Positions 23,251-46,300 of a stretch of 64,000 nucleotides of DNA are shown here, in pieces. The notes below the pieces were generated by a model, which saw only the letters and a list, made by a program, of their open reading frames with translations, did not search any database and was not told where the DNA came from. The position numbers and the translations under genes were made by a program. Within the stretch, counting starts at the first letter, position 1, and each line of letters opens with the position of its first letter. Origin of the DNA: Okamejei kenojei (Eukaryota); NCBI GenBank assembly GCA_035221665.1, contig CM069132.1, positions 62,930,001 to 62,994,000 on the forward strand, read 5' to 3'.

Positions 23251-24149
23251 AATCGGTTTATATAATTAACAACACACAGCAAATCACCATCTATTTGGCT
23301 TTAGCTAATTAGCTGTCCAGCAAACACTATGTAGCGATGTACAATTTATATGAACTTAAAAGTTGCAAGACAACACATAAGTTTACAAAATCTGTTTAAT
23401 GGTGTAACCAGCACATGTCAGCCTGTGTTTTACAAATAATATTTCATTTTCTGAAATTTCAAATAAAACTTGTTCATTCAAGTTTTAGATAAAATCTTGA
23501 CAGATTTTTTGCATATGGCACTGTGGCTAGTTTGATACATCATTTTTAAACAATTTGCTCCTAAGGAAATACAGACAAATCTATTTTCATGCAAACCTAA
23601 GTTCCTACAGTGCATGAAGAGAAAGGACGACATGAAAATGACAAAACTGTAAAAGCTAAACTAATGATAATGAAACATTCAAAGGAATATATATGTTAGT
23701 TCTGGATCATCATTCTGGATTGAGGAAAGGAAATAGCATTCAGTTATTAACAGATGTAGCATATAAAAATGATTTAAAGAGAAAAGTAAGAGCAGCCTAT
23801 AGGTCATTCAAATTTCCTCTAGAGTATTTAATGTTTGCTCCTGTAAATTATGAGATGTTCTTCAAAGTATTATAGGTATGCATTTTTTTTTTGAGTAAAT
23901 CATAGGCAAAACATGTTCTTTATGGGGTTAAATTGATTTTAAAGTGAATGCTTGCTATAATTGAATTGAAATATATTGAGATCCCCTCCCTATTTTAATG
24001 ATTTAAATAAATGTAACAACTTTTTAATATAGGTCCAGTTCTAGTAACACAGCGTCAATCCCAAGTAAAATGTATACATATTTTTACTAGACATTTATTA
24101 TATTTTCCAAATACATGCTCTTTATTGTCTTTATTATCCAACATGGTAA

Positions 24150-25112
24150 AGGCTTACTGGAAACATAATTGGCTTGATGGTAGGGAGCAGAGGGTGATGG
24201 AGGAAGATTGTTGTACTGGACTGAAAATCCATGACTAATAGTTTACCTCAGGGGGCCAGTACTGGGGCTTTCATTGTTTGTGGTTTATATCAATGACTTG
24301 GTTGAGAATGTATAAGACATGGTAAGTGAATTTGCAGATCATACTAAAATAGTTGGTATTATAGACTGTGAAGAAGGTTATCAGGAATCACAGGGGGATA
24401 ATGATCAACTGTCAAAGTGGGCCAAAGTATGGCAAATGGATTTTAATACAGCTAAGTGGAGGTCTGTATTTTGGGAGGTCAAGGTAGGATAGGAATTTCA
24501 CAGTGAAATGAAGGACCCTGGGGAGTGTAGTAGAATAGAGGGACCAAAGAGTATACGTTTTCTGAAAGTGGTATATCATAGGTAGACGTTGTGCACATAG
24601 TGGTCATTTTGGTCATCCTGCGTAGGAAATATGTCATTAAACTGGAAAGAGTACAGAAAAAAATGAGGATGTTGCCAGGATTCGAGAGATAGAGTTAGAG
24701 TGAGAGATTAGACAGGCTTAGACTTTATTTCTTAGAGCATAGGAGACTGAGGGACGTTCTTACAGACGTGGGTAATATCATGAGGGGCATAGATAGGGGA
24801 TGTAATCTTTCTTCCCTGGGTTAGGGAATCAAGAACTAAACGGCATAGGTTTAAGCTGGGAGGGGAAAGATAATAGGAACCAGAGGGGCAACATCTTCAT
24901 AATGAGGGTAGTACATATTTACAATGAGTTGCCATAAGAAATGGTTAAGGTGGGTTCAATGACAATATTTAAAAGATATTTAAGCCAGTGCATGAATGTG
25001 AAAGGATTAGAGGAATCAAATGCAAGCAAATTAGACTACCGTAGATAGGCACCTTCGTCAGTGTAGATGAATTGGGCTAACGGGCCTGTTTAGGCACTGT
25101 ATGACTCTATGA
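24150..25112 (+). mobile_element. Old CR1 LINE (RT C-terminal half to 3' tail)
   Basis: Degenerate PQGPVLGLSLFVVYINDL, FADHTKIVG; tail ctgtatgactctatgac. Confidence 0.85.
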
Positions 25113-25237
25113 CACTGCTGAGTGGACTTAGTAGTGGGTAGTGTCAGGGTGTGAGTAAAATGAGAAAGAGGCCTCCATTTCAACATAGGTCATTTCTGCC
25201 TATTCACTTCTATTAAAAGGCTAGTAGTAAGAGTTGG

Positions 25238-25800
25238 TCATAAGGTCATAAGTGATAGAAGCAGAATTAGGCCATTTGGCCCATCAAGTGTACTCCGCTA
25301 TTCAATCATGGCTGATCTATCTCTGATAACCCTAACCTCCTAACCCCATTCTGCCTTCTCCCCATAATCCTTGGCACGTGTACTAATCAAGAATCTATCG
25401 ATCTCTGTCTTTAAAATATCCATTGACTTGATCTCCACAGCCTTCTGGGGCTATGACCTCTAGCCCTAGACTCTCCCACTAGTGGAAACATCCTCTCCAC
25501 ATCCACTCTATCCAAGCCTTTCACTATTCGATATGTTTCAATGAGGTCCCCCCTTATCCTTCCAAACTCCAGCGAGTACAGGCCCAGTGCTGTCAAACAC
25601 TCATCATATGTTAACCCACTCATTCCTGGGGTTGTTCTTGTAAACCTCCTCTGGACCCTCTCCAGAGCCACCACATCCTTCCTCAGATATGGTGCCCAAA
25701 ATTGCTCACAATACTCCAAATGCAGCCTGACCAGCGACTTATAGAGCATCAGCATTACATCCCTGTTTTTGTATTCTAATCCTCTTGAAATATATGCTAG
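25238..25800 (-). mobile_element. CR1 LINE 3' part
   Basis: ORF 25411..25755 LYKSLVRLHLEYCEQFWAPYLRKDVVALERVQRRFTR. Confidence 0.92.
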
Positions 25801-25927
25801 CTAGGTATGGCTCTCCTGATTGGCTTGAGTAATATTGTAATTAACTTGTCAGGACTAGAGTTTAGATCCAGATCAACACTCCATTACTTATAAATTCTAT
25901 TCATCTTTAAGTTGCAGTTTACAGCAT

Positions 25928-25967
25928 CGCTGCCCCCAAAAGGTAGTGACAGCTGCCCTCTGCTGGT
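25928..25967 (-). promoter_or_regulatory. Strong CTCF motif with a weaker tandem neighbour
   Basis: Minus strand ACCAGCAGAGGGCAGC (25952-25967), full match to the core consensus; second CCTTTTGGGGGCAGCG (25928-25943) in the same orientation. Confidence 0.6.
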
Positions 25968-27299
25968 CTGTTTCCCTTTAATATAACATCAAGGAATTCT
26001 GTTATTATTTTCCGTCTTTTTCATTACCTTTTATTACCCAGCAGAGCTGATGATTGCAGGCGAGGCAGCTATGTTCTGACACGGGGTCTTTTTCTGCTAA
26101 ACTTCACTGTCATGTAAAATTCTAACTGTTACAAAGAATGAGCGTTCCAATTCATTTTTGCCAGTCCTAATATGAAAACTGTCAGGGCCCAAATTAATGA
26201 GTTCCAAATTCCTTACATCACAGTAACTATTTAAGACTGGTCAATTAATTACATAAAAACCTTCTCGATTCATTGTGCATTTCCAGCCTAGACCCTACAT
26301 ATTCCATTACTTCATGACACAGTGTTTCAATGAGGCCTTTTGGCTTTTGTTATTGCACAAAAAGCATCACTTAAGGAAAGACCATCTGCTGCAGCAAATG
26401 GTAAATGTCAGTAAAGAATGTTGCCTTTTTCTATCATAACATACCTTAGATATTAACCTTTACAGCGCTTGAACAAATGAAATAGTGATAATTCTTTAGG
26501 TTAGAAAATGCTGGAGGTTCATTCTTCAAACATTATTGATTTAATGTCTGCACGACTCATCATCACAAATAAGCTGTTTCGTACTTTATATTGAAGCTAC
26601 AGAATTTTATCTTTGAAACGATTCCTCGACTTAAATCTGGACATTTCCTGTATCAGAGGAGTGTTTGTCTCATCAGAATTTGTTTTAATACTTTTGTCTC
26701 CATATTAAATATTCATGTCCAAAATGAAAATGCCTGCAGCCAGATCTGCTATATTACACTGTTTTATTTGTCTTTTCAATCTCTGATGATGGTGTTGAGT
26801 TGCATTGCTTGTCCAACGCCTTTTTGGATGAATTGGGATCTGACCTGAACAAACCAGCTAAAAGGAAAAGTGTCAACTAAAAGTGAGATCAACTACAAGA
26901 TTTAAACTGCATCAGTTTTACGTGACACATCAAATAGATTCATTAGCATGTTTAACTTATACACTGAGAGGTTAGAGTGCAAAGAGACAGCAGTGCTGTC
27001 TAATCATGCTTCTGCCTTGGTCCATTATATAGTTAGTCATTTTGGTCTGACAGTGACCATTGTGTACAGCAGCTGGTAGATGTGGTACAGTACTTGAGTG
27101 AATTGATATACTGACCTTGTGTTCTTTCCCTCATACTTGACAACTACACTTTGGGAAAATACAAAAGCTAAACCCAAGTTGTGTGAAGTTACCCTACAGG
27201 TAATTTCAGAATATAACACAATGTAAATAGTGCAGTTTTTCACCCCTGCCAGCTGAAGGAGTCTCTTGCCATTGGTGAAACAAAAGTGATTGAGTGACA

Positions 27300-30200
27300 G
27301 TGTAATAAGCCTATTAAACAGTGAGCTTGGGCCAGGTGTGTACCACTGCAACATCAATCTGCACCCAGCTCCCGGGCCAACGGGGCTGGCTGCCTGATGG
27401 ATCTCGATCTGCTTGGTATACCAGGTGAAACCGGATAATTTCCTTTGTGCCTCACAGAAACAAGGGACATTGTTTAAGTCGGGTTTATCTGAGGATACGG
27501 CAGTTTGTGGATTTCAATATGAATTAAACTAAACATACCAACCGTAAGATGAGTGAAGAGTGTTTAAATTTTGAAACATTTTTTTTAATGTGGCAAAGAG
27601 CTGCCACGGCCCTCAGAGGATCAATAAAGAGAAAAGTGCGCTGTGAACAGCTGGTTGTTTTCATTACAGTGTTTCATTAGGGAGGCTGTGCCTCAAAGCC
27701 AGTTTACATGCCTACATCAATTTCAATAGGCTCATTTTCAACTGATTTAATTGGCCAATTTAAATTAGTTTAAACACTCAAAATGCTGTAAATGTAAAGT
27801 TAAGGGCACAAATTCACACAGGCAGTTTTCCATTGCCGTGGTGAATATCCGCAAAGAGAGTTTCTGGCCCTTGTCGCTCTCTCTGACCCGGCTTCAGGTA
27901 GATAGATACATTTCCTTTGTGCTCGCTAACCTATTGGTCCCAAATTTACGAAGCACCGACGTCCAGAAGAGATAAGAAAGAAGACCTTGCATAATGTTAT
28001 TCTCGATGTTAGAGCTTAAATTAAATCAGCTCATGTCCCTCATCGGTAAAACCGATTTTCCTGTCTTGATTTACACAAAGCAAATATCCCAAGAAATCTT
28101 CATCTTGTAATATACGTAACCGTAATATGGACTTGATTCATATGATAGGAGCTATAAAAAATTGTAAAATCAATTATTAAAAACACGTATTAAGTGCTAA
28201 TGCAATAACAATAATTTAAGAAAATCAATAACTGCTACGGTCATAACTTCGGAAGTAAAAGCTGTCATTGATAGATTGCTTGAAAGGATAAAGAAAATAA
28301 AAATTGGGAGTTTATTTTGGAGATATCCTATTTTTCTTCGGCAATAAATTGTGTGACCGTTGGTGTAAACCTTCTTTATTCGGCACCAGTCAACGTGTGA
28401 TCAATTATGTTACTTTTCAGGAATTCAAGCGCAGTCCGCTGGCTCTGGGGAGGGTGAATCTCGCCCAGCCCCTCCAGTGGGACAAGGTGCTCCCACCTTC
28501 CAATCAGGTTATATCCTGCATAATTCGCCATCATGTTCTAATAGTGCTTACATCATAAAATAAGTAGGCAAATCTGCAACACTGTCTATGTATTTCCTGA
28601 AAGCGAAAACATTAGAACTGCACACAGTCTCAATTTGCCCCAATGAATCTATTGTCACTCCAATCTGCCACGTTCTTTTGCCAAGTTTTGTATTCAATTT
28701 TAAAGAAATCAAAATGTAGCAATGTTAAAATCTAATCGGGAGAAGGTTTTGACCTATTCCGCACTTTAAAATTAATGCACTATAAATGGATCTTTTTTTT
28801 TCACCTAATACGTACACACTGTAAATCCGCTGAGCAGGCGTTTTAAAAATGTCACATTCTGCGACCTAACGTGACGCCCAGAGGAAAGACGTGTTCGACG
28901 AATGGAGGCTCTAACATGCATTTGCCCACTGTTCGACAAAATAATCAATTGATCCACGAACATTAGATGGCTCATCTGCTTATCATAAATATATTACAGG
29001 GTTGAATCTATGCAAAAAATGTCGATATCTGATTTATTCTTCATAAAATCGCGTGGTTTCTAAACGTATTTATGTAAGGTGCACACACACACACACATAA
29101 TATATTACCTGTCTACTATATATGTCTATGTATACACACATAGGTATATAGGTCCTGAAATAGAAATGCGTGAAAAACAGTTTTGAACTAACCGAATATG
29201 CATGGTTTAATTTGCCTCCTGATAATCTGAGCTCTTATTACATGTATGGACCATAGCATCTGTTTATTTTTCTCTCTAATTTTAATATCGTGCGATCCCG
29301 TATTTTCAATTAAACCATTCTTTGACGTGCATCAGTGCTAATTCGATTGCCAATATCTGGTTTCAGGACAGTCATATGCAAACAAAAAATAAGGTCACGG
29401 AAGTTTATTTATTCGTGCATCATAAGAGATATCGATTAAGAAAACAATTACACTCGTTTGATAAAACGTGCAGGTCCGATATCATCCAAGACTATGATAA
29501 TGAAACCAGAATTTCCTCTTTAGCGTACGACAGCAACTGATTATACAGAGCTCGAGGAGATCTGCATTGGGAAGCACGGGCTGGTTACATTATAAAATGA
29601 ATGCATCTTTTGCAGCTGCTGGGGCACACATCTTGCTCAGCGCTGGGCCATTCTGATAACGTGTGATATAGACATTCGGTGCTTCTTGTTACTAACATTT
29701 CCACTCACAAATAGTTGGTGTCTGCAACACCTTTCAGCTGGGCGCGGAACGGTATTTTAAGTGGCGCGGAACGGTATTTTAAGTGGATGCTCCTTCCCAT
29801 GAACAATGCGCTTATATATAAACGGCGGGTGTTTGTAGGTAATGAACTACATTGAAGCTCCATTCCGATTTTTAAAATAATTTTATAACTCATGGAAGCA
29901 ACAGCACATGTAAATGAAACATGAAACCGTTTCCTCATTGAGCTAGGTACAAAATCGCAATCATTCAGGAAAATAAATCGCAATGTAACAAAACACGTTT
30001 ACATTAAGACGTGATGCTTAAAATATATGATGTGATTTTTAATCACTTCAATTTGCTTAAAAAATGTCAGATTATTTATTTAATACTGCTTTTCTCTGTT
30101 AACTGACCTAATTATTGGCTGTGTCTAGTTGCAGAGACGCTTTAACAAAGAAGGCTGATTTGTGGTTTCAAAGACAATTGAACAGGGAGCGTGTGTGTTT

Positions 30201-33200
30201 CCTTCTTTGAATTCACAGATCTGCCCAATTACAAGAGACAATAAAGAATACCAGATAATATAGAAAACGAGTGTTGCATGCTGCTTCATCTCGCAATCAA
30301 TTGATACAATTCTCAACATATAATAAAGGTCCAATAAAGATGAATATAAAGTGGTTCATCCTGTCTCTATAAAGAATAGGTTGATTATATCAACGCGGTG
30401 AATTATTCTCAGTTACTTTCTTTTCTGTTTGGTAAACCTCTTGGTTCTTGGTTTCTTGGTCCTCCAAAATATTCCAAATGGAATTTAAACTGGAGGTGGT
30501 GGAGGGAGGACGTAAGCCAGAAAGGATTTTCAACCCCATGATTGAGTCGAACAGCCACTAAGAAACAACGAAAGATATGCTGTAAAGCACAACATACAAC
30601 ATGTTTAATTTGTGCAACACTTCTGCAAACGTTAAATTTGTGTAAAGGTTAGAGCTAAAAATAACAAAAGATTTTAAATATAATCTCTAACTTCCTTTTT
30701 TGAAAATGAAATCGCTCGTGCTTTTGATTTTATCCCCAGCTAAATGTGCTGTTTCATTTTTGTTTCTTTGTTGGATGAATGTAGATAAATAGTCATGGTT
30801 CGGTTTTCCAGACACCCACGATAGGCATTAGTACATGCTGCCGAACTGCTTCAGATATTTGCACTGTTTCCTGGTTCACATTGGTGACAGTGAAGGTAGG
30901 TGGTTGGAAGTTACGGGAGAGGAGGGTTGTTGTGTCTCATGCCCCCTCCCTGCCCCAGCCGCCCGCGGGCTTGTTGTGTCTGGCTGCACCAATGCTGACT
31001 GCCGTCTCTGGCTGGCTCGCACGCCGTTGCCATGGGTTACCGCTACCTGCCACTAAAAAGAAACTGGCAGAGAAATACCACCAGCGTCGGCAAACAGCAT
31101 TTAGGGATTAAACTGCCAGAGAAAGCTTTGCAGCAATAATAACAACAACAACAATTACAACATTTTAAATAATGGTCGCTGTATGCAAGGAAAGCAGGAA
31201 GGTCCAACCCTTGGCTGACGTTGGGCCGGCTCTGACTGAGGTGAGAGTGAGATGGGATATTACACAAGGCAGGTACACCGCTTTGCCGCTTTATTTCGGG
31301 AATGTTTGTTGTTGTGCCATGAAACATTATTTACATTGCATTCTCATCAGAGGAATGGAATCGTAAATTGGCAGTTTGTTGGGCTTTTGAAAGGATGTTT
31401 CTGTTTGTCTTGATAGCATTCGTGCCAGTTCAAGTACAAGGTAGTCAAGGGTCACTTAGTTAGTATGGATCACTGCATGTTATGAATAAGTACACTTCAC
31501 TTGAGTTTGTTGTTTAACACCCTTTAGCTTATTTACAGCGCTGGATGTGCGTATAACAAACTTCATTCGAGTCTCCCTCGAATTGAGGTGCATTGGGTGT
31601 TGAGTTTCTGGCTTTTTTGACAACGGAAAGGATTTGCTATTCAAACGGTTATTTATAAGCGCCCGCTGATGGCACAGCCACGGGAGATGGGTCAAAACAT
31701 CTAATGGGGAGAAATATAATTGTAGGAGAATTTCGTTGTACAGCAAGTTTCTCTGAAAATAACATGTAACCCTTTGAAAAGTGCGATGATCAATTTCAAT
31801 TGAACCAATCGGATATTATCTTAATGTGTTCCGAATCTCATTCCCAATTTTGATGATCTGCAATTGTGAAGGCAGTTTAGGTACACGTGTGGTCCTTTAA
31901 AGTTTCGCGGTGTGTTCTTTAATGACTCGTGTGTCTAATCCAAACTGATGAAAATCGCGGTGGGTGAAAACCGCTATGCATAAAACACAGCAGTTCAAGT
32001 CTTTCCAATGCAATTAGACAAGGTCTATGTATTCAGTACTGAATTGGAAATTACGTTTGTAACTTTTACCCATTCTATCCTCTCGTTGAAACGTGCCGAA
32101 TGCCTGCAATAAATTTAGATCGACTTTAGAAAGTTTGTTAAACGAGTTGTCAGACTACGCATTTTGTGAGCTGTCAGTCATTTCTTTCCCTCTTATTCCA
32201 ATTTATTGGAATTCCTGAAGTAAACAGGAATAAAGTTAAAGTTAGGGTGTAAAAGCATGGCGAATGGAATATGTTGTAATATAGGTATTTCGTACTTCAA
32301 TTACGATTAAAGTTATGGACAACTAAAGGGGTGAACTCTAGGCACTGCTTCAAGGCGATCCCCAGACAGGAACAACTGCCTCCATAGACAATACAATACC
32401 CCAGTTCAGATCTGCATTAAACTAGAGAACATATACCGAAATCTTTAGATAATCAATACGTATGTCATCAAAACAGCACCTGCAGTTCCTCGTTTCTGCC
32501 CAAACCAAATGAATCCTATAACATTACACACAATAGCCCAAGGATATGTTTGTTTACTAAATAGATTTTGGAATAACGAATTATGTGGGAAATGATAATT
32601 GATTATGTGGTAAATTTGAAGCTACATTTTCATGAATTCTCGATGCAAAATCGGAAAATTTCAAAACAACTGGTTCATTGACCTTAGTTCAAACTCTTGA
32701 TTTTTTTTAATGAGCTACTGCCGTCCTAACTATCAAAGCTGTGACCACTTTTTTGCATGGCTCGCTGGTTTAATTCTGAGACCGTCTATATTAATCACGT
32801 AACCAAAGTCAGAACAGATACAATTGGAGCAGAGTTGGTACAAATCCATGAAGAGGATCATTATCACTGGGCACTTTGGGTTTATGCGGTTCCTTAAAAA
32901 AGTATTCCCATTACCCTTTCCAAGGAAAACAAAACAGGTAAATGTCAAAAATCAGATATACCGGGTCTTAATTGATACGCTTCCAACAATTCAGCGCATT
33001 CTACAATGGCCTTATTTTTTGCACTGTCCAGAGACGTTATCTCTGGGTTTATCGCTGATTTCCAATCCTGTTTTCGGCTTGCTTTGTCTGTAACAAAAAT
33101 GTTAACACTTACAAAGACCACGTTTTGAAATCAAACAAACGAATACGTAATTTCAAATTGTGACTTGCCAAATAACCTAATACCGTGTTAATGTTCTTGG
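27300..33200. promoter_or_regulatory. CpG-retaining (probably unmethylated), repeat-poor regulatory domain
   Basis: CpG dinucleotides visibly much more frequent than in the flanks despite AT-rich composition; no sizeable TE from ~25.8 to ~33.4 kb; no credible coding ORF. Confidence 0.6.
30930..31260. promoter_or_regulatory. Promoter-like core: GC-rich tract, CCAAT, RFX X-box-like site, splice donor
   Basis: gccccctccctgccccagccgcccgcgggc; CCAAT ~30989; GTTGCCATGGGTTAC ~31026-31040; GAG|GTGAGA at 31240/31241. Confidence 0.45.
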
Positions 33201-33489
33201 TGAAAGTAAAATATTATGATCACCATGAATCCTAACTTATCATTTTCAACACACCTTGCCTTCTCTTGTTGATTTAGGATAATAAAACAATTACCATTAT
33301 GAATAGATAAGATCTAGATTCTTAATTATTTGCCTAATTGAGTGACAAACATTTTTCATTATAGAGCTCAAATGAAACTAGGTAATTTGGAGATTATGTT
33401 GCACGTACCACTATATGTATTTATATATCTTATATATTTAGTGCAGGTTTTCACCAATAAAGAAATACATACAATTGAGTAGATGGTGC

Positions 33490-33960
33490 CATTATTCAGT
33501 GACATCATGGCTTATCCATTTTGCCCATGATCCTAACATAACTTCCTTTGATCCCAATAGAAGTCGGCTATGAACACATTTAATTCTTTAGGATCAACTT
33601 CCCTTGGGGACGGAAGATTTCCAAGATTCACAACCTAGTATGTAAAAATCGTTTCTCCCCACTCAGAGCCAAATAGTTGACTCCTTACCTGGTTGTAATC
33701 CAATTTAAAATACTTGTTGATTTTTAATGCAGAGTTTATATTTACCAGACAGACTAAAATCAGGCTTTTAGATTCAATCATAACATCTTTCATTGTCTCA
33801 ACTCCAGAGAGCATAGATCCATCTTACTCAAAGGTCAACACACTTATCCAAAGAATCCATCTGGTGAAAACTCACAGCACTGACTCCATATGCATCCCTG
33901 GATAAGGCAACCAAAAATGCATGCAGCAATCCAGATGTTGTTTCACCAAATGCCGAGTGG
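33490..33960 (-). mobile_element. Old CR1 LINE 3' part
   Basis: Degenerate aaggcaaccaaaaatgcatgcagcaatccagatgttgtttcacc, equivalent to the CR1 RPHLEY..QFW region on minus. Confidence 0.65.
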
Positions 33961-34648
33961 CTTATTTGAAAAGCAGCTAATAAATGACCAGTGACAAGAA
34001 TGAGACCAAAAACAAGATTTAGGAAAAAGCAAAAACAATTCTCAGTTGGATTTGCATTGGTAGTGGTTACCCAAAAGGCTTTGAACATTTAATAATAAAG
34101 TACAAAAGTAAAAATGTGTAAATAAATAATTGCTACAGGTAGGTAAAGTAATCTATTGGCAATGGATAACTATTACTGAATCAAAGTACTGAATCAATCA
34201 GAACGCATGCTTACAAATTATGCTGGGCCTATAGAAGGTAAAAAGTGTTTGAAACAGTGCTTCAGTTTCTTATTTTAAATTGTTCCATTTACAACAGGGT
34301 TGCAATAGGAGAGATCGTAGACTGATTACAAATGGAAAGCGATCAAGCCAAAATATTAGGGAAGAGATTGTTTCTAAGTTTTGCAAAATCAGTAAACCAA
34401 ACTAAAATTGTTCTGGTTGTCTAATTCAAGGCATCTGCTACATTATTTTGCAAATACAAAAATATTAGCAAAGCTTTTGATCTGTGTTTGACAATTCCTG
34501 TGATACCCCTTGAGACATTTTCAAGATGGTATATAAATGGAGCAAAAATACAAATTGATGGAGGAACTCAGCAGAGCAGGTAGCATATGTGAAGGCAGAA
34601 GGATGGTCGACGTTTCACGTAGATAGACACAAAAGAGTGAGCAATATT

Positions 34649-34673
34649 TTATGACTTCACATTGTTGTCACGT
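34649..34673 (-). CDS. Candidate alternative terminal mini-exon of SNX10 (RDNNVKS*)
   Basis: Near-copy of the end of the terminal exon (gacaacaatgtgaagtcataa vs gacaacaacgtgaagtcgtaa), preceded by ttttcaatatgcag, which puts it in frame at phase 2. Confidence 0.35.
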
Positions 34674-34899
34674 CTGCATATTGAAAATGCAAATACGGCC
34701 TGAAAGAAAAATAATCTTAATGTGATGAGCTCTGAAGGACCAGATGTCCATTTCTAAGCCTGCATTTTATAAAATAGCAAATCTCTCCATCCAAGTATCT
34801 ATAATAAAGAACAATAAAACTAAAAACTTCCCAAATCTCAAAAATAACATTTCAGTTTCAACCATGACTGCAAAAAAAGCAAATCAATGACATTACATC

Positions 34900-37326
34900 T
34901 TTTGTTCACTTCAATTTTTATTTGCATATAACAACATAAAAAAAAGTACTACCAATTCCAAGTGATCTTACATTAACCAAGAGGGAAAAATATGAATTCT
35001 GCTTCCAGTTCAAAGGGAAGATCGCTCCTGCAAACAAAAACATGTAATGACTTATGGTCAAGTTGACAAACTGCACAGGCACATTTAGATTTCATTCTGA
35101 AGCCCACTAAGCTGTCAAACTATGCCAGAGTCCTTTAATTGGTCTAGACAATCAAGTAAGTCTTTCAAAACCACCTAATACCATATGGTCAAGAAGAACA
35201 GGCTTCTGTTGACAAACTAAGTGCTAATGGTCTACTGCAGTGCTTATAGAGTAAGAGAGGATCTGTGTACATAACTCACAAGAAGCTGTAGATTTGTTTT
35301 TTTTTCCTGCTATTAAACATGTACATTTGAGAACAATCTAAAACTTTGCACGGCATTCCTACATTTTAACCTCAAGATATGAAATAATTCCTGCTGTTTA
35401 TCAGAACAAAGGTTCACTTTACACAAACAATCTCAAATTATCATTGCAATACCTTGCTCTATTTGTAACTCATAGTACATCACCAATAATACACATTTGA
35501 TTAATTTATTATAAGATAATTGCACAATTCCATGAACATTGACATTGAAATATAAAATATAAAACATTTATATAAATGAAGTGTAGCATCCCATCAGACA
35601 TCTCATAAAGTTCCAGTGTCTTTCATTCTCCCATTTTCTGCAAAACTGTCCTTGACTGCAGAGTTTATTTTCACATTCACAATGGCAACACCAGATGACC
35701 ACTGTGACCAGCAGGCTAAATAATAATTCACAACTCCATATTCAAAAAAACTCAGACAGGTGCAGATTTCCAATATCAGGAGACAAATTTTAATAAAATG
35801 TTATCTTTAGTAACATGAGAAAGTCAATTTTTTGTTTATTAAAGGTAAAAATAGAAGATGCAGTACATAGAAAGTTAGGATACATCTGCAGAGGGCCAAT
35901 AGTTATATTGCTTCATAAATTCCTAGGTAACTTTAAAATCTGAAATCCAAAGATGGAAAAAAAAGTGAAATATATCAGAACAAATAGCTTTCGGCAGAAC
36001 ACTGAAATTACAATCAAAATCCATCCTTAAAAGAGGAAATTACAGTTTATTTTCTTTTAAAAAGCTCATTTACAATAAACATTCGATGAACATTCTCCCT
36101 CCAATAAAGATAACTCCCTGCTGTGTCAAGGTTCCGTAAGTAGTGCTCATTTGTTAACTCAACCAAGTGGCCATTTTCATGTAACGCATGGAACCAGGTT
36201 TTCTTTTGCTGCCTTTTGTCTAGAAGTGTAGCCGAACGATGTCAACACCTACACTTCAAGCAAGGATTTTTAGCAAGCAAGTAGGCCAATATTCCTTTGC
36301 CTAGAGAAGCATCTTACTATTCAGGAAAATAATGGAATTGCTATTTGACCCAAGGGTGTATTTAACAATTTGAAGACTAATAACACATTTTACAAGGAAC
36401 AAGCTAATACATTCTGAAAAAAATACCCAATTACCAAATTGGGCAATTCCAAACTAAATTCCTCCTCACACATAAAATAACACTGCTCTGATAAGTAAAT
36501 CAAATGTTAAATTTTACACAGCGTCAAGTAAAATACCACCTGAATCTACAGGATAAAACTCAACAGAAAGTTCTATAAACCAATCCTGCCATAATTAATG
36601 CAGGATCACTGAATGATTTAAATTGAATGAATAAGTTAAGGCAAAGAGTTATCCGTTTATTTTACCTCACAATGAATGTTGCTGTCTCAATCAAATGTAG
36701 CTAAATTCATAGACTTTTTAAAAAATGCTTGCTTAGCAAATAAGTTATTAAATCAAGGCAATGGATGATAAATTTCCATAAATTAATCCAGAAGCAATTT
36801 ATGAATGGCTGATTTACATATTCAATGTGCAAGAATAACATTTTCTTCCAACAGCTCTTGTATTAAAAACAAACCATGATAACTTTGGGATTGCCATTTG
36901 TAGCACACAATATGCAAACTCACAACCAACATTTAGGTGCAATAAAATTTTGTGTTCAGTTCATAAAAAAGGATTCATCAAATGCATTTTACATTTTCAG
37001 TTACGTTTAAATTTCTTTCAATTAATTGCAGTCGTTTATTTTGGTGCTTTCTACAAATGAACGTCTTACAAAAAGGCCCAAATTTCTTCAGGCTTTTTCT
37101 CTCTTTTCATTCCAGAAGTTGCAATTAAAAATAAAACAGCTCAGAGTCAGACTTTCCCATCTACAAAAAAAAACACTGCATCAAGCTCCGAGCTTCCATG
37201 AATTTATTTTGCAAATGAGGTCTATATGGATGATTTAGATTTGGAGAACAGTCTAGACTGCAGATTTGGAACACATGCCCAAAACAGAAAATGAGCCACA
37301 AAACAGATCCTTGCAATTTTCATCTT
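34900..37326 (-). other. SNX10: Probable SNX10 3'UTR
   Basis: AT-rich, free of recognisable repeats, follows the stop codon; several minus-strand AATAAA (e.g. ~37035, ~35505, ~34917). True end unknown. Confidence 0.5.
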
Positions 37327-37381
37327 TTACGACTTCACGTTGTTGTCACTGCTGCTATTTCCAAGCCCTGAGGATGAAGTG
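37327..37381 (-). CDS. SNX10: SNX10 terminal coding exon ([17 protein letters not shown])
   Basis: ttattttattttcatcag|C, phase 2; SSSGLG matches the mammalian last exon; TAA at 37327-37329. Confidence 0.88.
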
Positions 37382-40300
37382 CTGATGAAAATAAAATAAT
37401 AAAGAGGAAATTGGTTTCTACAACACAGTTAAAGCCTGAGTAACAGAGGAGAACCTTAATTATCTCCAGTCTCAGAGAGACAGGAAATTTGGTCTTTTAA
37501 TTAGGTGTTTGCAGTAGAGTCTGATATTTTTTGCTAGATAATTTAAAAGGAAATAACCCAAGTCTAACAAAATGAAATTCAGATAATCAGAATACAGATA
37601 ATTGAATTTTCACTGCATTCATTAAGTCAGTGTGGAGGTGTGAGCAGCTTTCTATGATGAGCTGTCACAGCTCTATAACAATGAGATGAATTAACAATGC
37701 TTTAAAAAAATATATAGGATTAAAATCCTTGCATCTCAAATTTAAACAGATCTTTAATTTTTACGCTTCCTCGACAGGGAACCTTTGGTTGGACGTTGCG
37801 TGCCTATGAACAGCATCAGTAACTGTATAGTCGGTCAGACCCGAGACGCAGGCCTCAATCTCTGTGGTGCTTAGTTGTGTCTGCAAGAAGAGATGCAATC
37901 TACTGTCGGAAAGGAGGATGTTGCTCTGCAATACTCTGCAAAACAAAAAGGATCATGTCAAGCACTTTCTTTAAAAATGTATACATTGGACAATGAATAG
38001 GCTATTATGTGATTAAATACAGAATATGATGGGGGAAGAAAAAAGCAAGAGCAGCTGATATATTTCAGTGAACTGCATGTTGTTTGTTTACTACAAAAGT
38101 AGAAGCTGTACGGTCAAAATATTGTGTTTTCTCACAGCTCAGTTAAAGCAGTAAGTTGCTGGGAGAGGGAGAGGGAGTGGGAGAGGGAGAGAGATCCTTA
38201 GTCTTGCAATTGACTCTCTCTCTTTCTAATTGAGACCACACCACAGGAAGGTCAAAACCAATCAACTTCACATTCATTGGTTTACATAAAACTTTACAGT
38301 TGTGTGTTTGACTAAACTCTGGATGCAGATGGTCTAGGAGATGGGGCAACTGTGGTTCACCAAGAAAACAAATAACCGCAAGGACCTAAAGAGATGTTGG
38401 CCACTCTTAGTCAGCAATGATGCACCACTACGGTGAATTACGTCTACTTTTCAAACAAGAAAAGTGCACAGATTATTTACCTATTTAAGCATATTGCAAT
38501 TTCCCAAATGTCTTCACAAATTTATATTACCTTAAATTTAAATCAGTACGTCTTTTCATTAAGGAGCCTGCTATGATGTGACCATAGATTGTTTTATTAA
38601 CATAAGTATTAGATGGATAACAGTTCTGGTTAAAATAAAAGTTAATGCAATCATATCAAATGCAAACAAACACATGTAACAGCAATCATTCCCCAATCAA
38701 AACTATCTTATACTAGCCTACTCTATCATCTTCAAGATTGGTCGGCACTTTCAAATGCAATGCAATATAATCCTAGGTTCTAATGAGAATTCAGCTGCAA
38801 CTACAGAAACATCATGACAAAAACTTGCTATCTTTCATACTTGCACAAAATTTCATATTAGTTATTGATTTTAGCTTAATAGTTGAATTTGATAGTCTGA
38901 AATGGCAGTTTGTCAAAGCCATGATTTGCTGTATTAATACAGCAACATTTTTCATTACAAATCATTTAAACAAGCTTACTTATAGAGTGAAGTACCTCAG
39001 TTATAGGTGCCTATTGACCAATAAATGGCTCTGTAATGAAAGCCTTTTGGGGAGAAAATAATATTTTCCAATTTATTTGTGAAAATAAATATAAACTGAT
39101 TTATTTTGGGGAATTCGTAATTATCTAGAATTAGCCCAAAAGCCAAATTTGGAAGATATAGCCAGCCTTTAGACATGTATGTGCCTTGTATCCAATTGTT
39201 GAAACCAATGATAATTTTTAAAACTACAATTATGGCACAGGTGAGTAAAATGGGATTTTAGCAGTTTGCATGCAAGATGCTGCTCGCTAGTGCAGATTTC
39301 ATAAGAGCAATTCCCCTCCAACTTACATACAACAACCCTTTCAATGCTTTGAAGCTAGATTCAAAACAAACAAAATTATTTATTCCTTAAATATTTCTAT
39401 GGTATATGTAGTTTATGATTAATAGTCAATGAACATAGAAAAAATTAGCCAGAAACATTGGGTTTGCACTGACAACAAAGCCAATCTAAACTAATACTGT
39501 TTGCCTATAAATGGTCCATATCCTCTATTCCCTGTTTGTTCATTAGTCTTTGTAAATGCCTCAAACCCTGCCATTCTATCACCTCCCCCAACACCGACCC
39601 CTCTCTGTATAACAAAAATATGCCTCGCAATTCTCCTTTTCCCCTTACACCTTAAAACTATTTCTCTGGTATTTTACATCTCTATCCTGGAAAGAAGACT
39701 CTGACTATCTACCCTATAATCAATGTTCCATTTTTCAATCTTTACAATCTTCTGATCACGATTCTATGGCTGATAGAAAGAAATACAATGTCATATGAAC
39801 TATATAATACCTTGTGTCAGCTCTGGACTTAGAAGACATTATGTATCTGAATTCTAACTTGTACCTTTTTTGTCCCTACATTCAGCTTTTGTCAAGTATC
39901 CAGGCAACACTAAAATACTCAAATACTGTAATTGTTATATGGTTATATGGTTATACAAATTTTACTTTCAATAAGCCTTATGGATTTCGCTGCTACCATT
40001 TGAAATTTCTGATGGATATATAACAAAATGGCCATCAATGAAACCTCGTCGAATAGTCCTTTAGGTTAAAATCATACAATGTATTTAGTCTCTTGGTCCG
40101 GAAGTCCAAATATTTGCAGATATGCAGCTCCATTAATTAAAAAAATAACATTAGCCTTTACATTTATTGAACTGTAGTATAAAAAGAGACCGTTTTGATA
40201 GTCCTTTTCAAGCACATGTTAGACCACACCTGGACCACTGTGTAACATTTTGTGTATTGTTTTTGTCAAGGAAAGAGTACACCATCATGATATTAGTGTT

Positions 40301-43300
40301 TTAAGCATTAGATTTTGAGATATTAAATAAACGGATCTTGTGTCATTTGGGATATAGATAGTCAAGGATGATCCTTAAATAGAAACATAGAAAATAGGTG
40401 CAGGAGGAGGTCGTTTGGCCCTTCGAGCCAGCACCGCCATTCATTATGATTATGGCTGATCGTACCGAATCAATAACTCGTGCCTGCCTTCTCCCTATAT
40501 CCCTTGATTCCACTAGCCCCTAGAGCTCTATCTAACTCTCTCTTAAATCCATCCAGTGATTTGGCCTCCACTGCCCTCTGTGGCAGAGAATTCCACAAAT
40601 TCACAACTCTCTGGGTGAAAAAGTTTTATCTCACCTCAGGCTTAAATGGCCTCCCTTTTATTCTAAGACTGTGGCCCCTGGTTCTGGACTCGCCCAACAT
40701 TGGGAACAGTTTTCCTGCATCTAGCTTGTCCAGTCCTTTTATAATTTTATATGTTTCTATAAGATCCCCCCTCATCCTTCTAAACTCCAGTGAATACAAG
40801 CCTAGTCTTTTCAATCTTTCCTTATATGACAGTCCGCCATCCCAGGGATCAATCTTGTGAACCTACGCTGCACTGCCTCAATCAAAAGGATGTTCTTCCT
40901 CAAATTAGGAGACCAAAACTGTACGCAATACTCCAGATGTGGTCTTACCAGAGCCCTATACAACTACACAAGAAATTCTCTACTCCTGTACTGAAATCCT
41001 CTTGTTATGAAGGCCAACATTCCATTAGCTTTTTTCACTGCCTGCTGTACCTGCACGCCAACTTTTAGTGAACGGTGTACAAGGACACCCAGGTCTCGCT
41101 GTACCTCCCCCTTACCTAACCTAACCCCTTTGAGATAATAATCTTCCCCCTTGTTGTTGCCACCAAAGTGGCAATAATCCTTGACTATCTATATCCCAGA
41201 TGACACAAGGTCTGTTTATTTAATATTTCATAATCTAATGCTTAAAACATTAATATCTTGATGGTAGGGAAGGACAGTGGTATTAAGAGGAATGTGCAAG
41301 ATAATTACTCAGCTGTAAGATGGCGCCACTTAGAGGCCAAACAAAATCAGTCAACAAGTTCACAATGATGTTCCTTGGTATCCAGAGTATAAAAATGGTG
41401 GAACTCATATGGTCTTTCCTCAAAAAGCTTAATGACAAAGTAGAATATACACACACACACACACACACACATATATGGATAGAACCATGGAAAATTGAAT
41501 TTAATCTTGGAAAATGCAAGGCAGTGATTGAATAAAGATAAGACATTAACAGTGAATGCTAAAGTCCTAGAGTGTATTGTGGAGTATAGAATCTTGCTGA
41601 ACAATCCACAAAGCAGAGGTAAAGTGGTGAAGCAGGCATGTGGTATGCTGGCCTTCATTAGCTCGGGGTTTGAATTAGAGCAGGAAAGTCTTGATACAAA
41701 TCAATTAAAACATTGGTAGACCACAGCTGAAGTGCTATATGTGGTTCTAACCACCATACTGTAATAGCGCTGAAGTGGTGCAGAGCAGATTCACTGGGAT
41801 AGACAATAGGTGCAGGAGTAGGTTATTCGGCCCTTTGAGCCAGCACCGCCATTCACTGTGATCATGACTGATCATCCACATTCAGTACCACGTTCCTGCC
41901 TTCTTACTGGATCCCCTGACTCCGCTATCCTTAAGAGTTCTATCTAACCTGGGATGGAATGTTTCGGTTATGAGGGGAGCATGAATAGGCTGGTTTATCG
42001 TCTTTGAGCTCTGGTGGCTGAAGGGAGACCTGACAGAGGTATACAAAATTATGAGGCCATAGATAGGGTAAACAGTAGGAAACCTTTCCCCACAGCAGGC
42101 AGACCTACCACGAGAAAATAGACATTTAGACCAAGGAGGAGGAGGTTTATGGTGAAGTTGAGAACATTTTTTTCACCCAGAGGATGGTTGCACTTGAATT
42201 GCTGAGGCTCAGAAGACTACAGACCAAGTACTGGCAAATGGGATTAGTATAGATGGACAATTGGTGGTTGGCATGAACATGGTGGGCTGAATGGCCTGTT
42301 TCTGTGCTATATGGAAGAGACATAGTTTTAAATAAATAAAAACAAACCCAGGTATACAATTTGCAAGAAAGTGCATTCCAAATATTCAGTAAAACTATAG
42401 AAGTAAATACATGTTTGAAAGAATGAGCAAGTTGCTGCAATCTGTAAATTATCAGATTTTTAGCTTGCAAATTATGAGTCAATTTACACAACGCAATGTT
42501 CATACCCCAACCACTCTGGCATTAATTCCACTCAGTCTAAGTTATATCTTGATACTCCTTTTTTTGGGAGGATGAAAATAAATATTTTTCCTTATAATAA
42601 ATAAATATTGTTCCTTATAATAAATAAATATTTATTATAAGGAACAGTTCTTTGATGTTTTCATAATATCACATGTTTAAACTATCATTTCATAAATTCT
42701 GTATGCTATGTCTTCAGCATGCATACATCCACTGCATTAGCACCAATAGATTGACTTGGAGCTGTCCTGAGCAGGGTAGAATATTTGCGAGGCCATAAAC
42801 AATAAAGACTATTTCCACCCCCTCCCCCAAATGCATTTTGGAAACTGGCATGGCAAGTCTCAATAGGTCTTGTAAAATCATTGAAATAATTGAAAGGAAG
42901 GTTCTCCAGAACACTCCACTGATGAAAAGTGATCACCACTTATTCCACAACCGAGTGGTTGTACAGAATCACACATTTTAATTCAGATTACAGCCTATCC
43001 TTTTCCTGATCTACTTGCCTTCATAAATTTACAACAATAAATATTCAGCCAAAATAAATACACAAGTCCCCCCCAAAAAAATTATTGGATGAGTCACAGA
43101 CCTTAGACCAATTTAAATCATTCAATAAATTACCATTGCAACCCTTGGGAGCAAGCTCTAAAGCAGACATTTTCAAACCAAAAGTTTAAGATCCATTTGA
43201 AATATTGATCAGCAGTTTCCAGCTCAGAGTTTCACCTTGCTGGTGCTACAGGATGCCATGCTCCAGTTAAGTCAGAGCTTGAGGTCCAGAACGCTTGCAC

Positions 43301-46300
43301 TACTTGACAAAAGTAATACCAGCAGAAGCAATGCACAGAAGGCACAGTTATTTCTTATTTTAAAACAAAAATGTACACTTCTGCAAGAAATAAGAGATGT
43401 GGTTAATTTTCCCACAATCATTGCCCTGATCCAGTGATTTAAAGCTGGAAGGTCTTTGGAATAGTTGGCTTGTACCCTAGTATTTGGGAAAAAGTTCAGG
43501 CTTCTTATCTAGAGAAATGGCAGAAATCCTGACCATGCTCCCAACTGAGCTCTGATCTGGGGACTGCTCCCCTCTGATGGACTCCCCTAGACTGGGAGAT
43601 CTGCTGAACCTGTGCCAATGCATTCATTTTAAATGACTGCTGAGCAGGGATGGGGAGAGGGAAAATATAGTTCCCTTTCTTTAGGTCAAGTTATCATTCC
43701 AAATGGCTTAAGTGTTTTAAATGAGATTTTTAAACATTAAACTCCATTGCAGTATTTTCAGTTTTCAAAACCTAATTTCTTTACATTGGTGAATGTCAGA
43801 TATCAAATCAGCTTGGCAGCGGGAAAGACTGAGGGCACAAAATGTTTTTTAGAGAACATGGCTTGTCAACTTGGATCAGATAGGCCCCGAGCTGCACAGG
43901 ACATTGCCTGTCAGCAGCAAGATGGTGTGCACCCTGATGCAGGGAAGCTAAGGAAAAAGCAAGTTTATGTTTCAGTGATGTGCAAGCTTGACTGTTCTCC
44001 GAGTACAGAACAATTGGGCAAATAAAGCCTTGATTACATAAACCATACAGCCTCCATATTGTCTAGTGCACCAATCAGATTCGAATGTCATTGTCAAATC
44101 TGCCACAAGCTGTGTACAAGCCTAGGAATAAGGGGTAGGCCATTTAGAACAGAGATGAGGAAAAACTTTTTCACCCAGAGAGTTGTGAGTCTATGGAATT
44201 CTCCGCCTCAAAAGGCAATGAAGGCCAATTCTCTGGATGCTTTCAAGAGTTAGATAAAGCTCTTAAAGATAGCGGAGTCAAGGGATATGGGGACAAGGCA
44301 GGATCAGGGGTACTGATTGTGGATGATCAGCCATGATCACATTGAATGGCTCAAAGGGCCGAATGGCCTACTCCTACACCTATCGTCTGTTGTCTAAGGT
44401 TACAATTATGCAGACAATTTTGAACAGCTTTATTGGGCTAGACTATTAAATTTTCCCAATTGAAACAAACTACAGTGCCTTCCGTAATGTTCGGGATAAA
44501 GACCCATCATTTATTTATTTGCCTCTATACTCCAGAATTTGAGATTCGTAATAGAAAAAAGCACGTGGTTAAAGTGCACATTGTCAGATTTTAATAAAGA
44601 CCATTTTTATACATTTTGGTTTCACCATGTAGAGATTACAGCGGTGTTTATACATAGTCCCCCTATTTCAGGGCACCATAATGTTTGGGACACAGCAATG
44701 TAATGTAAATGAAAGTAGTCATGTTTAGTATTTTGTTGCATATCCTTTGCAGGCAATGACTGCTTGAAATCTGCTATTCATGGACATCACCAGTTGCTGG
44801 GTGTCTTCTCTGGTGATGCTCTGCCAGGCATGTATTGCAGCAATTTTTAGTTTATGCTTGTTTTGGGGGCTAGTCCCCTTCAGTTTTCTCTTCAGCATAT
44901 AAAAAACATGCTCAATTGGGTTCAGATCGGGTGATTGACTTCGCCATTTTTTAGCTCTGAAAAATTCCTTTGTTGCTTTGGCAGTATGTTTGGGATCATT
45001 GTCTTGCTGTAGAATGAAATGCCGGCCAGTGAGTTTTGAGGCATTTGTTTGAACTTGAGCAGATCAGATGTGTCTATACACTTCAGAATTCATTATGCTA
45101 TTGTATCATCAATGAAGATAAGTGAGCCAGTACCTTCAGCAGCCATACATGCCCAGGCCAAATCACCCCCACCACCGTGTTTCACAGATGAGGTGGTATG
45201 CTTTGCATCTTAGACAGTTCCCTCTCTCCTCCATACTTAGCTCTTACCCTCACTCTGATATAAGTTAGTCTCCATCTCATCTGTCCCCAAGACCTTTTTC
45301 CAGAACTGTGGTTGCTCTATTAAGTACTGCTTGGCAAACTGAAACCTGGACATGCTATTTTTGCGGCTAACCAGTGGTTTGCATCTTGCAGTGTAACCTC
45401 CGTATTTCCGTTCTTGAGGTCTTCTGCGGACAGTGGATATTGACAAATCCACACCTGACTCCTGAAGAATGTTTCTGATCTGTCGGACAGGTGTTTGGGA
45501 ATTTATCTTTATTATAGAGAGATTTCTTCTGTCATCAGCTGTGGAGTACTTCCTTGGTCTGCCTTTGCGATTTGTAGGCTCACCAGTGCTCTCTTTATTC
45601 TTAATGATGTTCCATACAGTTGTGTTTGGTAAGCCTAAGGTTTGGCTGATGTCTCTAACAGTTTCATTCTTGTTTCTCAGTCTCATAATGGCTTCTTTGA
45701 ATTTCATTGGCACAACTTTGATCATCGTGTTGATAAACAGCAATAAAAGTTACCAAAGATGATGGAAAGACTGGAGGAAAGACTAGGTGCTGAGAGCTCT
45801 GATACCTGCATTAAGGAGGCAATTAAACATACCTGAGAAATTATAAACAGCTGTGAAGTCATGTGTCCCAAACATTATGGTGCCCTGAAATGAGAGGACT
45901 ACATATAAACACAGCTATAATTTATACATGGTGAAACCTAAATGTATAAAAATGGCCTTTAATAAAATCTGACAATGTGCACTTTAACCACATGTGATTT
46001 TTTCTATTACAAATCTCAAATTGTGGAGTACAGAGGCAAATAAATAAATGGTGGGTCTTTGCCCAAACATCATGGAGTGCACTGTACAAGGCCAGTGACC
46101 ACCTTTAAGGTTACCTCAGAGAAGACTCTAGGTTGGGAACAGCCATGCAGTCAACAAAGAGAGGAGGAGGCCATACAGCTTCTATCACATCCAACAGGAA
46201 GCTCTGAGAGAGCCATGGGGTCTGCACAGTCTGTCAACACATTTAAGCAGCCAAGCAACCACTCACTGTGCCAGCTAAGGTGGCTCTTAGTCTCTGCATC

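Follow-up and report, generated by a model that had tools for sequence, protein, structure and literature searches.

Gene order around the island

We analyzed a window of 64,000 nucleotides from the skate Okamejei kenojei (assembly GCA_035221665.1, contig CM069132.1, positions 62,930,001 to 62,994,000 of the forward strand). Within it, 3' of SNX10, lies a 5.4-kb island (27,801-33,200) that stands out by an excess of CpG at background GC, a lack of repeats, its place in the gene order and its motifs. Contigs are labeled C2 (that of the window, which is C2:62,930,001-62,994,000), C7 (HoxD) and C31 (HoxB); coordinates without a label are positions in the window. An earlier note on this DNA had proposed that the region belongs to the 3' regulatory landscape of HoxA and is the counterpart of the HoxD element CS38-40, from which the long non-coding RNAs (lncRNAs) Hog and Tog arise.

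A homeodomain search of the genome (2.76 Gb) yielded three Hox clusters, at C2:61.86-61.96 Mb, C7:75.09-75.18 Mb and C31:12.51-12.67 Mb. Genes and island follow one another along C2 as HoxA, SKAP2, the CpG island, SNX10 (minus strand), CBX3 and HNRNPA2B1, with SKAP2 called from an SH3 exon that pairs with an SH3 exon on C31 (SKAP1), CBX3 from a chromo-shadow exon beyond SNX10, and HNRNPA2B1 from RRM exons that pair with exons on C7 (HNRNPA3). C7 also carries a metaxin-type exon at 75.283 Mb and a CNC-bZIP exon at 75.941 Mb. We take the gene and cluster names to follow from the detected domains together with known synteny; the maps, for which Pfam scans covered 52 of 1,410 open reading frames (ORFs) on the HoxD and HoxB sides and 119 of the 868 listed on the HoxA side, are incomplete. 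The homeodomain search and the paired exons bear out the proposed linkage of the window to HoxA and exclude an unlinked scaffold, the last HoxA homeobox being 994 kb from the island. The gene order given in the earlier note holds from HOXA through HNRNPA2B1; for its last member, NFE2L3, looked for beyond C2:63.08 Mb, a bZIP_Maf search (28 candidates scored) gave CNC-type exons beside HoxD and HoxB and none on C2, where NFE2L3 may be lost, moved or too diverged.

CpG retention at background GC

The maximum-likelihood CpG segment spans 27,801-33,200, with a CpG rate of 0.80 inside and 0.33 outside. It holds 164 CpGs at an observed/expected ratio (o/e) of 0.82 and a GC content of 0.39, against o/e values of 0.30 (25,802-27,800) and 0.26 (33,201-40,280) in the flanks. 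The best 6-kb window reached 0.785 and the best non-overlapping window 0.48, and none of 2000 block permutations reached the best. The retention claimed for about 27.3-33.2 kb is thus present far above the level of the flanks, with its start near 27.8 kb and not at 27.3. In the 0.69 Mb from C2:62.30 Mb to the right end of the window, the island is the strongest CpG segment in unique sequence, with a log-likelihood ratio of 51.5 against 26.7 for the next. The median o/e of the 58 repeat-free stretches of at least 3 kb in 1.99 Mb is 0.31, so that a lack of repeats does not explain the CpG retention of the island. Highest among these stretches are the DNA just 3' of HoxD1 (o/e 0.77-0.86, GC 0.38-0.42) and the HNRNPA2B1/CBX3 promoter region; taken as a segment, the DNA 3' of HoxD1 has an o/e of 0.82 at a GC of 0.40, which is the signature of the island. 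Since the top of this ranking includes HoxD1 3' DNA at similar GC, the island looks like Hox-flank DNA in composition.

By the classical island rule (200 bp/50%/0.6) only 30,890-31,163 passes, and no window of the island passes the Takai-Jones thresholds (500 bp, GC 55%, o/e 0.65). In zebrafish, high o/e at background GC is the rule for non-methylated islands, which often mark lncRNA starts (PMC3583005). The island is of this fish type, in which GC may equal background and o/e lies well above it (0.82 against 0.26-0.33), and is predicted to be non-methylated. In the mechanism that we propose, the CpGs would persist by escaping methylation-driven decay, and the germ line is very likely unmethylated at this place.

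In two relatives, organisms B and C, DNA contigs are collinear with 27,000-35,400 and show substitutions of 2.6% in 27.0-30.4 kb, 3.7-4.2% in 30.5-33.7 kb and 3.3-3.7% in the right flank. Among the shared substitutions listed for 27,000-28,560 (25 of 341 rows, no flank control), transitions fell at 1 of 66 CpG positions and at 7 of 556 other C/G positions, a CpG count with P 0.08 against fivefold and 0.01 against eightfold hypermutability. CpG hypermutability is not seen in these 25 substitutions, a pattern that would fit an unmethylated germ line.

Other CpG-rich sequences were seen in the same landscapes. A perfect 22-bp tandem duplication with CpGs lies inside the island (29,741-29,786), and a CpG-rich reverse-transcriptase element lies to its left (6,029-7,868). 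Further multi-kb CpG-rich segments 3' of Hox clusters, at C7:75,329-75,337 kb, C7:75,784-75,791 kb and C2:63,009-63,022 kb, consist in part of low-copy transposon pieces; that at C7:75,784 kb has a CTCF-like motif pointing away from HoxD.

Repeat-poor surroundings and copy number

Repeats were masked by self-comparison of about 2 Mb (the window and 1.93 Mb from the three Hox 3' landscapes), the resulting repeat shares being lower bounds. The run at 25,802-40,280 (14.5 kb), which contains a CTCF motif, the CpG island, and the 3' untranslated region (UTR) and last coding exon of SNX10, is longer than any other of the 1,348 inter-repeat gaps in 1.99 Mb; repeats make up 0.9% of 25,800-33,400 and 32% and 37% of its flanks. 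The region had been described as about 7.5 kb free of sizeable transposable elements, and poor in them it is, over a wider extent and with one young repeat inside. For this 97-bp dispersed repeat (30,439-30,537), LINE-tail-like (long interspersed nuclear element) in our reading, 40 of 1,461 candidates were scored and 39 proved to be further copies (94-99%); the contigs of the two related organisms skip it, as a lineage-specific insertion.

The run extends across the 3' UTR and last exon of SNX10, so that nothing special is needed to account for its right half. The island is an 'orphan' only in part: its end lies 4,561 bp from the SNX10 stop codon. The last coding exon, with the stop, is at 37,761-37,935 on the minus strand, as judged by translation, splice sites and a match to the SNX11 exon, and the 3' UTR likely ends by an AATAAA motif at 34,917, 35,505 or 35,835. 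The other SNX10 coding exons found, likewise on the minus strand, are at 55,499-55,519, 53,030-53,116, 49,654-49,754 and 48,911-49,009 (PX domain, E 7e-6; canonical splice sites), and have 53-73% identity to paralogous exons on the HoxB contig, where the 3' end of SNX11 was placed at about C31:13.112-13.117 Mb. An SNX10 intron holds a Tc1-like transposon with terminal repeats (44,471-46,086). In the SKAP2-SNX10 interval, five Gly-X-Y triplets follow an AG acceptor at C2:62,832,769, with no donor and a stop directly after, by chance or as a relic of a collagen exon; ColQ adjoins snx10a in zebrafish (PMC3897358).

The stretches 25,800-30,400 and 30,560-33,500 are single-copy genome-wide, save for three weak 67-78 bp matches at a CA/TA-rich patch, in a search that skips common words. 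No old repeat fragments were found in the island, where six of seven real control stretches had matches at E 0.003 or better, and three ORFs of at least 100 aa in the region gave no transposon or protein family match. These results bear on a non-regulatory origin, by which the island would be a mobile element, young or of low copy number, that escaped recognition, or the remains of a gene, or would reflect compositional chance. Such an origin could draw on the transposon pieces that other CpG-rich 'unique' segments nearby proved to be, and on a repeat mask built from 2 Mb only and a genome search blind to common words. It is, however, highly improbable given the single-copy state of the island, its collinear presence in two relatives, the lack of old repeat fragments and of family matches, and the permutation result (0 of 2000).

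The promoter-like core and a candidate transcript

A GC-rich, promoter-like core lies at 30,890-31,163, within the 30.9-31.3 kb that the earlier note had singled out; as sequence it is borne out, this being the stretch that passes the 200-bp rule. It has GC-box-like motifs at 30,943 and 30,959, a CCAAT motif at 30,989 and a match to the RFX X-box at 31,026-31,040, found by pattern matching; the X-box pattern has 4 matches in 464 kb. Four sequencing runs were aligned to 27,000-35,400, X1 and X2 from one study of organism A, and X3 and X6, which are DNA, from organisms B and C. None of nine runs was found on record as RNA; the RNA status of X1 and X2 is a guess, and X2 was flagged 'probably DNA'.

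The X1 contig spans 30,989-31,241 and ends one base past a plus-strand donor after 31,240, and the X2 contig aligns over 31,001-31,273, stopping one base past a plus-strand donor after 31,272, with 157 further letters that are absent from 27,000-35,400. Among the 52 GT sites of 30,900-31,700, the donors after 31,240 and 31,272 rank first and fourth, and the X3 and X6 DNA contigs run through both positions. Over 27,000-30,371 X1 and X2 cover nothing, which is no evidence against a leftward transcript. Read as spliced plus-strand RNA with two donors, antisense into SNX10, the X1 and X2 contigs give a weak hint of a candidate first exon (30,989-31,272, plus strand) of a non-coding RNA that would run toward SNX10. 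In the second step of the proposed mechanism, the CCAAT, GC-box and RFX motifs would probably drive this plus-strand transcription, with splicing at 31,240 or 31,272.

The ORF family scans and a phmmer search gave no evidence of a coding gene, in agreement with what had been noted before. A coding first exon from the ATG at 31,172 (33 aa) was considered and rejected: phmmer against 1.84 billion proteins gave two matches, both to tandem-repeat proteins, the phase of the frame differs between the two donors, and the two substitutions listed within it are both non-synonymous. An Rfam scan of the window gave no match at gathering thresholds; a mir-3149 match on a CA/TA repeat was rejected (E 0.13, 27 bits against a cut-off of 100).

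A HoxA-facing CTCF motif and the possible role of the island

At the left edge of the region, where a CTCF site had been claimed, a scan with a JASPAR matrix predicts one HoxA-facing CTCF-like motif (25,951-25,969, minus strand, 19.4 bits). None of 300 shuffles of 7.6 kb reached this score, and the motif is the only match of at least 10 bits in 24,001-41,000; a second, weaker HoxA-facing motif lies in an SNX10 intron (41,321-41,339, minus strand, 16.5 bits). Three matches in 473 kb of unique DNA on the HoxA side have at least 19 bits, every one HoxA-facing.

In human acute myeloid leukemia (AML) cells, HOXA loops to SNX10 with an anchor at chr7:26,350,000-26,375,000, the contact falls on deletion of HOXA CTCF sites, and the histone mark H3K27ac lies on a non-coding RNA (ncRNA) downstream of the SNX10 3' UTR (PMC7657955), where, according to the earlier note, a CpG island and lncRNAs lie. 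Relative to SNX10, SKAP2 and HOXA, the skate island occupies the position of this anchor. We cautiously favor the view that the 5.4-kb CpG-retaining island is likely unmethylated in the germ line, likely serves as an lncRNA promoter and is a possible HoxA loop anchor that probably matches the human element by position. In the third step of the mechanism, which we give a little more credence than doubt, cohesin extruding from HoxA would stall on meeting the convergent CTCF motif, and CxxC/Polycomb or Trithorax complexes would be recruited by the unmethylated CpGs, favoring contact with the CpG-rich cluster. The fourth step, positional orthology with the human SNX10 3' element, is fairly likely, as judged by gene order.

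Several points weigh against this view. Methylation, chromatin state and HoxA contact are all predictions from sequence. Conservation of the island does not clearly exceed that of its flank (left half against flank, P 0.04 and 0.13), and the substitution count covers 25 of 341 rows with no flank control. X1 and X2 come from one study and are RNA by guess, and neither start nor strand nor level can be read from contigs; an insertion in organism A could account for the 157 loose letters of X2, and a second exon of the candidate RNA was not located within 27,000-35,400. HoxA-facing motifs are common (7 of the 11 matches of at least 16 bits in the 473 kb of unique DNA), and the CTCF motif lies 1.85 kb outside the CpG segment. 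We take the human ncRNA to be SNX10-AS1/AC004540.4 (T-RECS), and place a CpG island roughly 2 kb beyond SNX10; no passage seen in the cited literature links AC004540.4 to SNX10. AC004540.4, on chromosome 7, has been called unconserved in other species (PMC10882889), and its promoter gains methylation in tumors (PMC9102946).

The main rival is a purely local element at the SNX10 end, a non-methylated promoter of an SNX10-antisense RNA or a regulatory island of the SNX10 3' end that would have no real HoxA role, its CTCF motif being one of many. A distance of 4.6 kb separates the end of the island from the SNX10 stop codon, HoxA being 994 kb off; its repeat-free run is continuous with the SNX10 3' UTR, the candidate transcript points into SNX10, and the CTCF motif is one of 11 CTCF-like matches in 473 kb, seven of them HoxA-facing. 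In the human AML cells, moreover, HOXA expression persisted when the SNX10 loops were weakened (PMC7657955). Yet for a simple promoter 5.4 kb is a large size (the HNRNPA2B1/CBX3 island of this genome has 2.2 kb); the composition is like that of Hox-flank DNA; and human HOXA does loop to the equivalent position (PMC7657955). We regard a purely local role as possible, though unlikely.

Relation to HoxD CS38-40

Mouse CS38-40 combines the CS39 enhancer with three CTCF sites, bound and cluster-facing, and with a CpG island at which Hog and Tog start (10.1101/2020.07.12.199109). The earlier note had suggested that the skate island may be its ohnologue, both deriving from an ancestral boundary and lncRNA promoter duplicated in the vertebrate genome doublings, and a CpG island, promoter and cluster-facing CTCF motif do lie within the paralogous Hox1-to-HNRNPA interval. 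The sensitive alignment that it had called for was run with 27,000-33,500 as query, two small repeats masked, against the 3' DNA of HoxD (800 kb) and HoxB (300 kb), and no score rose above shuffled controls. With blastn, the best match was 34.6 bits in 1.0 Mb of masked HoxD and HoxB DNA, against 33.7-41.9 in 20 shuffles, and 31.9 bits in a further 100 kb of HoxB DNA, against 27.4-35.6 in shuffles. An nhmmer search with the island gave no match in HoxD and HoxB 3' DNA, and Smith-Waterman scores of the core against candidate regions were within the null in five of five cases, with the CTCF flanks unmatched. The same 2-Mb comparison recovers paralogous exons; absence of alignment is nonetheless weak evidence, of low power at such age. 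The HoxD 3' domains of mouse and zebrafish share a boundary within their topologically associating domain (a sub-TAD boundary), the sequence of which is little conserved (PMC12675288); alignability is thus expected to be lost, and even a true ohnologue might give no match.

The 800 kb of HoxD DNA yielded no paralogue of SNX or SKAP, and pairing by position can therefore be no finer than the 630-kb MTX2-HNRNPA3 interval. On the scale from Hox1 to HNRNPA the island lies at 0.90 and the best skate CS38-40 candidate at 0.32. The HoxD desert on C7 has several CpG patches, and the candidate, a guess, is that at C7:75,414-75,416 kb (o/e 0.86), which contains an exon-like stretch that opens with ATG and runs up to a GT donor. 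It is one of the five regions compared with the core of the island, which aligns neither to it nor to the other four; the 43-residue peptide of this stretch gave no usable match in an Atlas search. Four HoxD-facing CTCF-like motifs lie within 24 kb there (75,415 kb; 75,420,059; 75,435,135; 75,438,192).

On the HoxB side no comparable island was found 3' of SNX11. The strongest CTCF-like motif of the scan, HoxB-facing and of 22.4 bits, lies at C31:13,094,641 in the SKAP1-SNX11 interval, paralogous to that of the motif at 25,951; its presence would suit common descent, but its flanks are dissimilar to those of the motif beside the island, and no comparable island accompanies it. Two further matches, an X-box at C7:75,879,053 that is identical over 15 bp and a CTCF core at C31:13,147,429 that is similar, have unrelated flanks and were rejected as evidence of ohnology. 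The motif scan of 24,001-41,000 gives the skate region one motif of at least 10 bits against three cluster-facing sites in CS38-40, and the hint of an lncRNA at the island is for the plus direction only, in contigs of one study that cannot show absence. With alignments at shuffle level, one CTCF motif against three, no island 3' of SNX11, discordant relative positions and no paralogous gene to fix position, ohnology with CS38-40 is unsupported, and we consider it very unlikely. Our literature search, which did not cover subscription papers, returned no paper describing such an element in cartilaginous fish or proposing the HoxA/HoxD pairing. Hog and Tog are named positionally conserved (PMC5853149); SNX10 is mentioned neither in the text or supplements of that paper nor in the supplements of PMC10882889.

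A broader proposal would make the island part of a gnathostome-wide anchor, an unmethylated lncRNA promoter with a convergent CTCF site kept from skate to human, with the SKAP1-SNX11 CTCF site and CS38-40 as its counterparts; it would be an internal 3' Hox boundary that predates the duplications and whose architecture outlived alignable sequence. We hold this to be a long shot. Should the island correspond to the element at the 3' end of human SNX10, positional conservation across jawed vertebrates would hold for an lncRNA locus that has been called unconserved, and a defined candidate anchor, open to deletion, would be added to the HoxA 3' landscape; were it an ohnologue of CS38-40 as well, the internal architecture of Hox 3' landscapes would be older than the genome duplications.

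Comparison with known systems

Two human regions on the 3' side of HOXA, the 'Geneless Canyon' and the craniofacial global control region, are large, unmethylated and gene-free and contact HOXA over more than 1 Mb (10.1101/2020.04.16.017533; PMC10762089). In its predicted lack of methylation and predicted HoxA contact the gene-free island would resemble them. They lie, however, 1.3-1.5 Mb from HOXA, beyond SNX10-CBX3-HNRNPA2B1-NFE2L3, whereas the island, a distinct element, lies between HoxA and SNX10. The skate locus has in common with mouse CS38-40 (10.1101/2020.07.12.199109) a CpG island, a cluster-facing CTCF motif and an lncRNA start that is here a candidate, all within a landscape 3' of a Hox cluster. 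The mouse element is bound by CTCF at three sites, gives rise to divergent lncRNAs, contains the CS39 limb enhancer and splits its domain in two; the skate island has one motif and a hint of transcription in one direction, adjoins a gene end and has no alignable sequence.

Vertebrate non-methylated islands (PMC3583005) offer a likeness in o/e that is high at background GC, in multi-kb length and in a candidate lncRNA start. In contrast to the intergenic and broad islands of that study, the skate island lies partly within 5 kb of a gene and covers no transcription-factor gene, and its non-methylated state is predicted. The human SNX10 3' locus is alike in position and gene order, with an ncRNA just past the SNX10 3' UTR (PMC7657955); the human data come from leukemia cells, whereas the skate element is known by its sequence and a weak transcript hint. 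As the evidence stands, the island is an element of an ordinary and known kind, the fish-type non-methylated island, in an interesting place.

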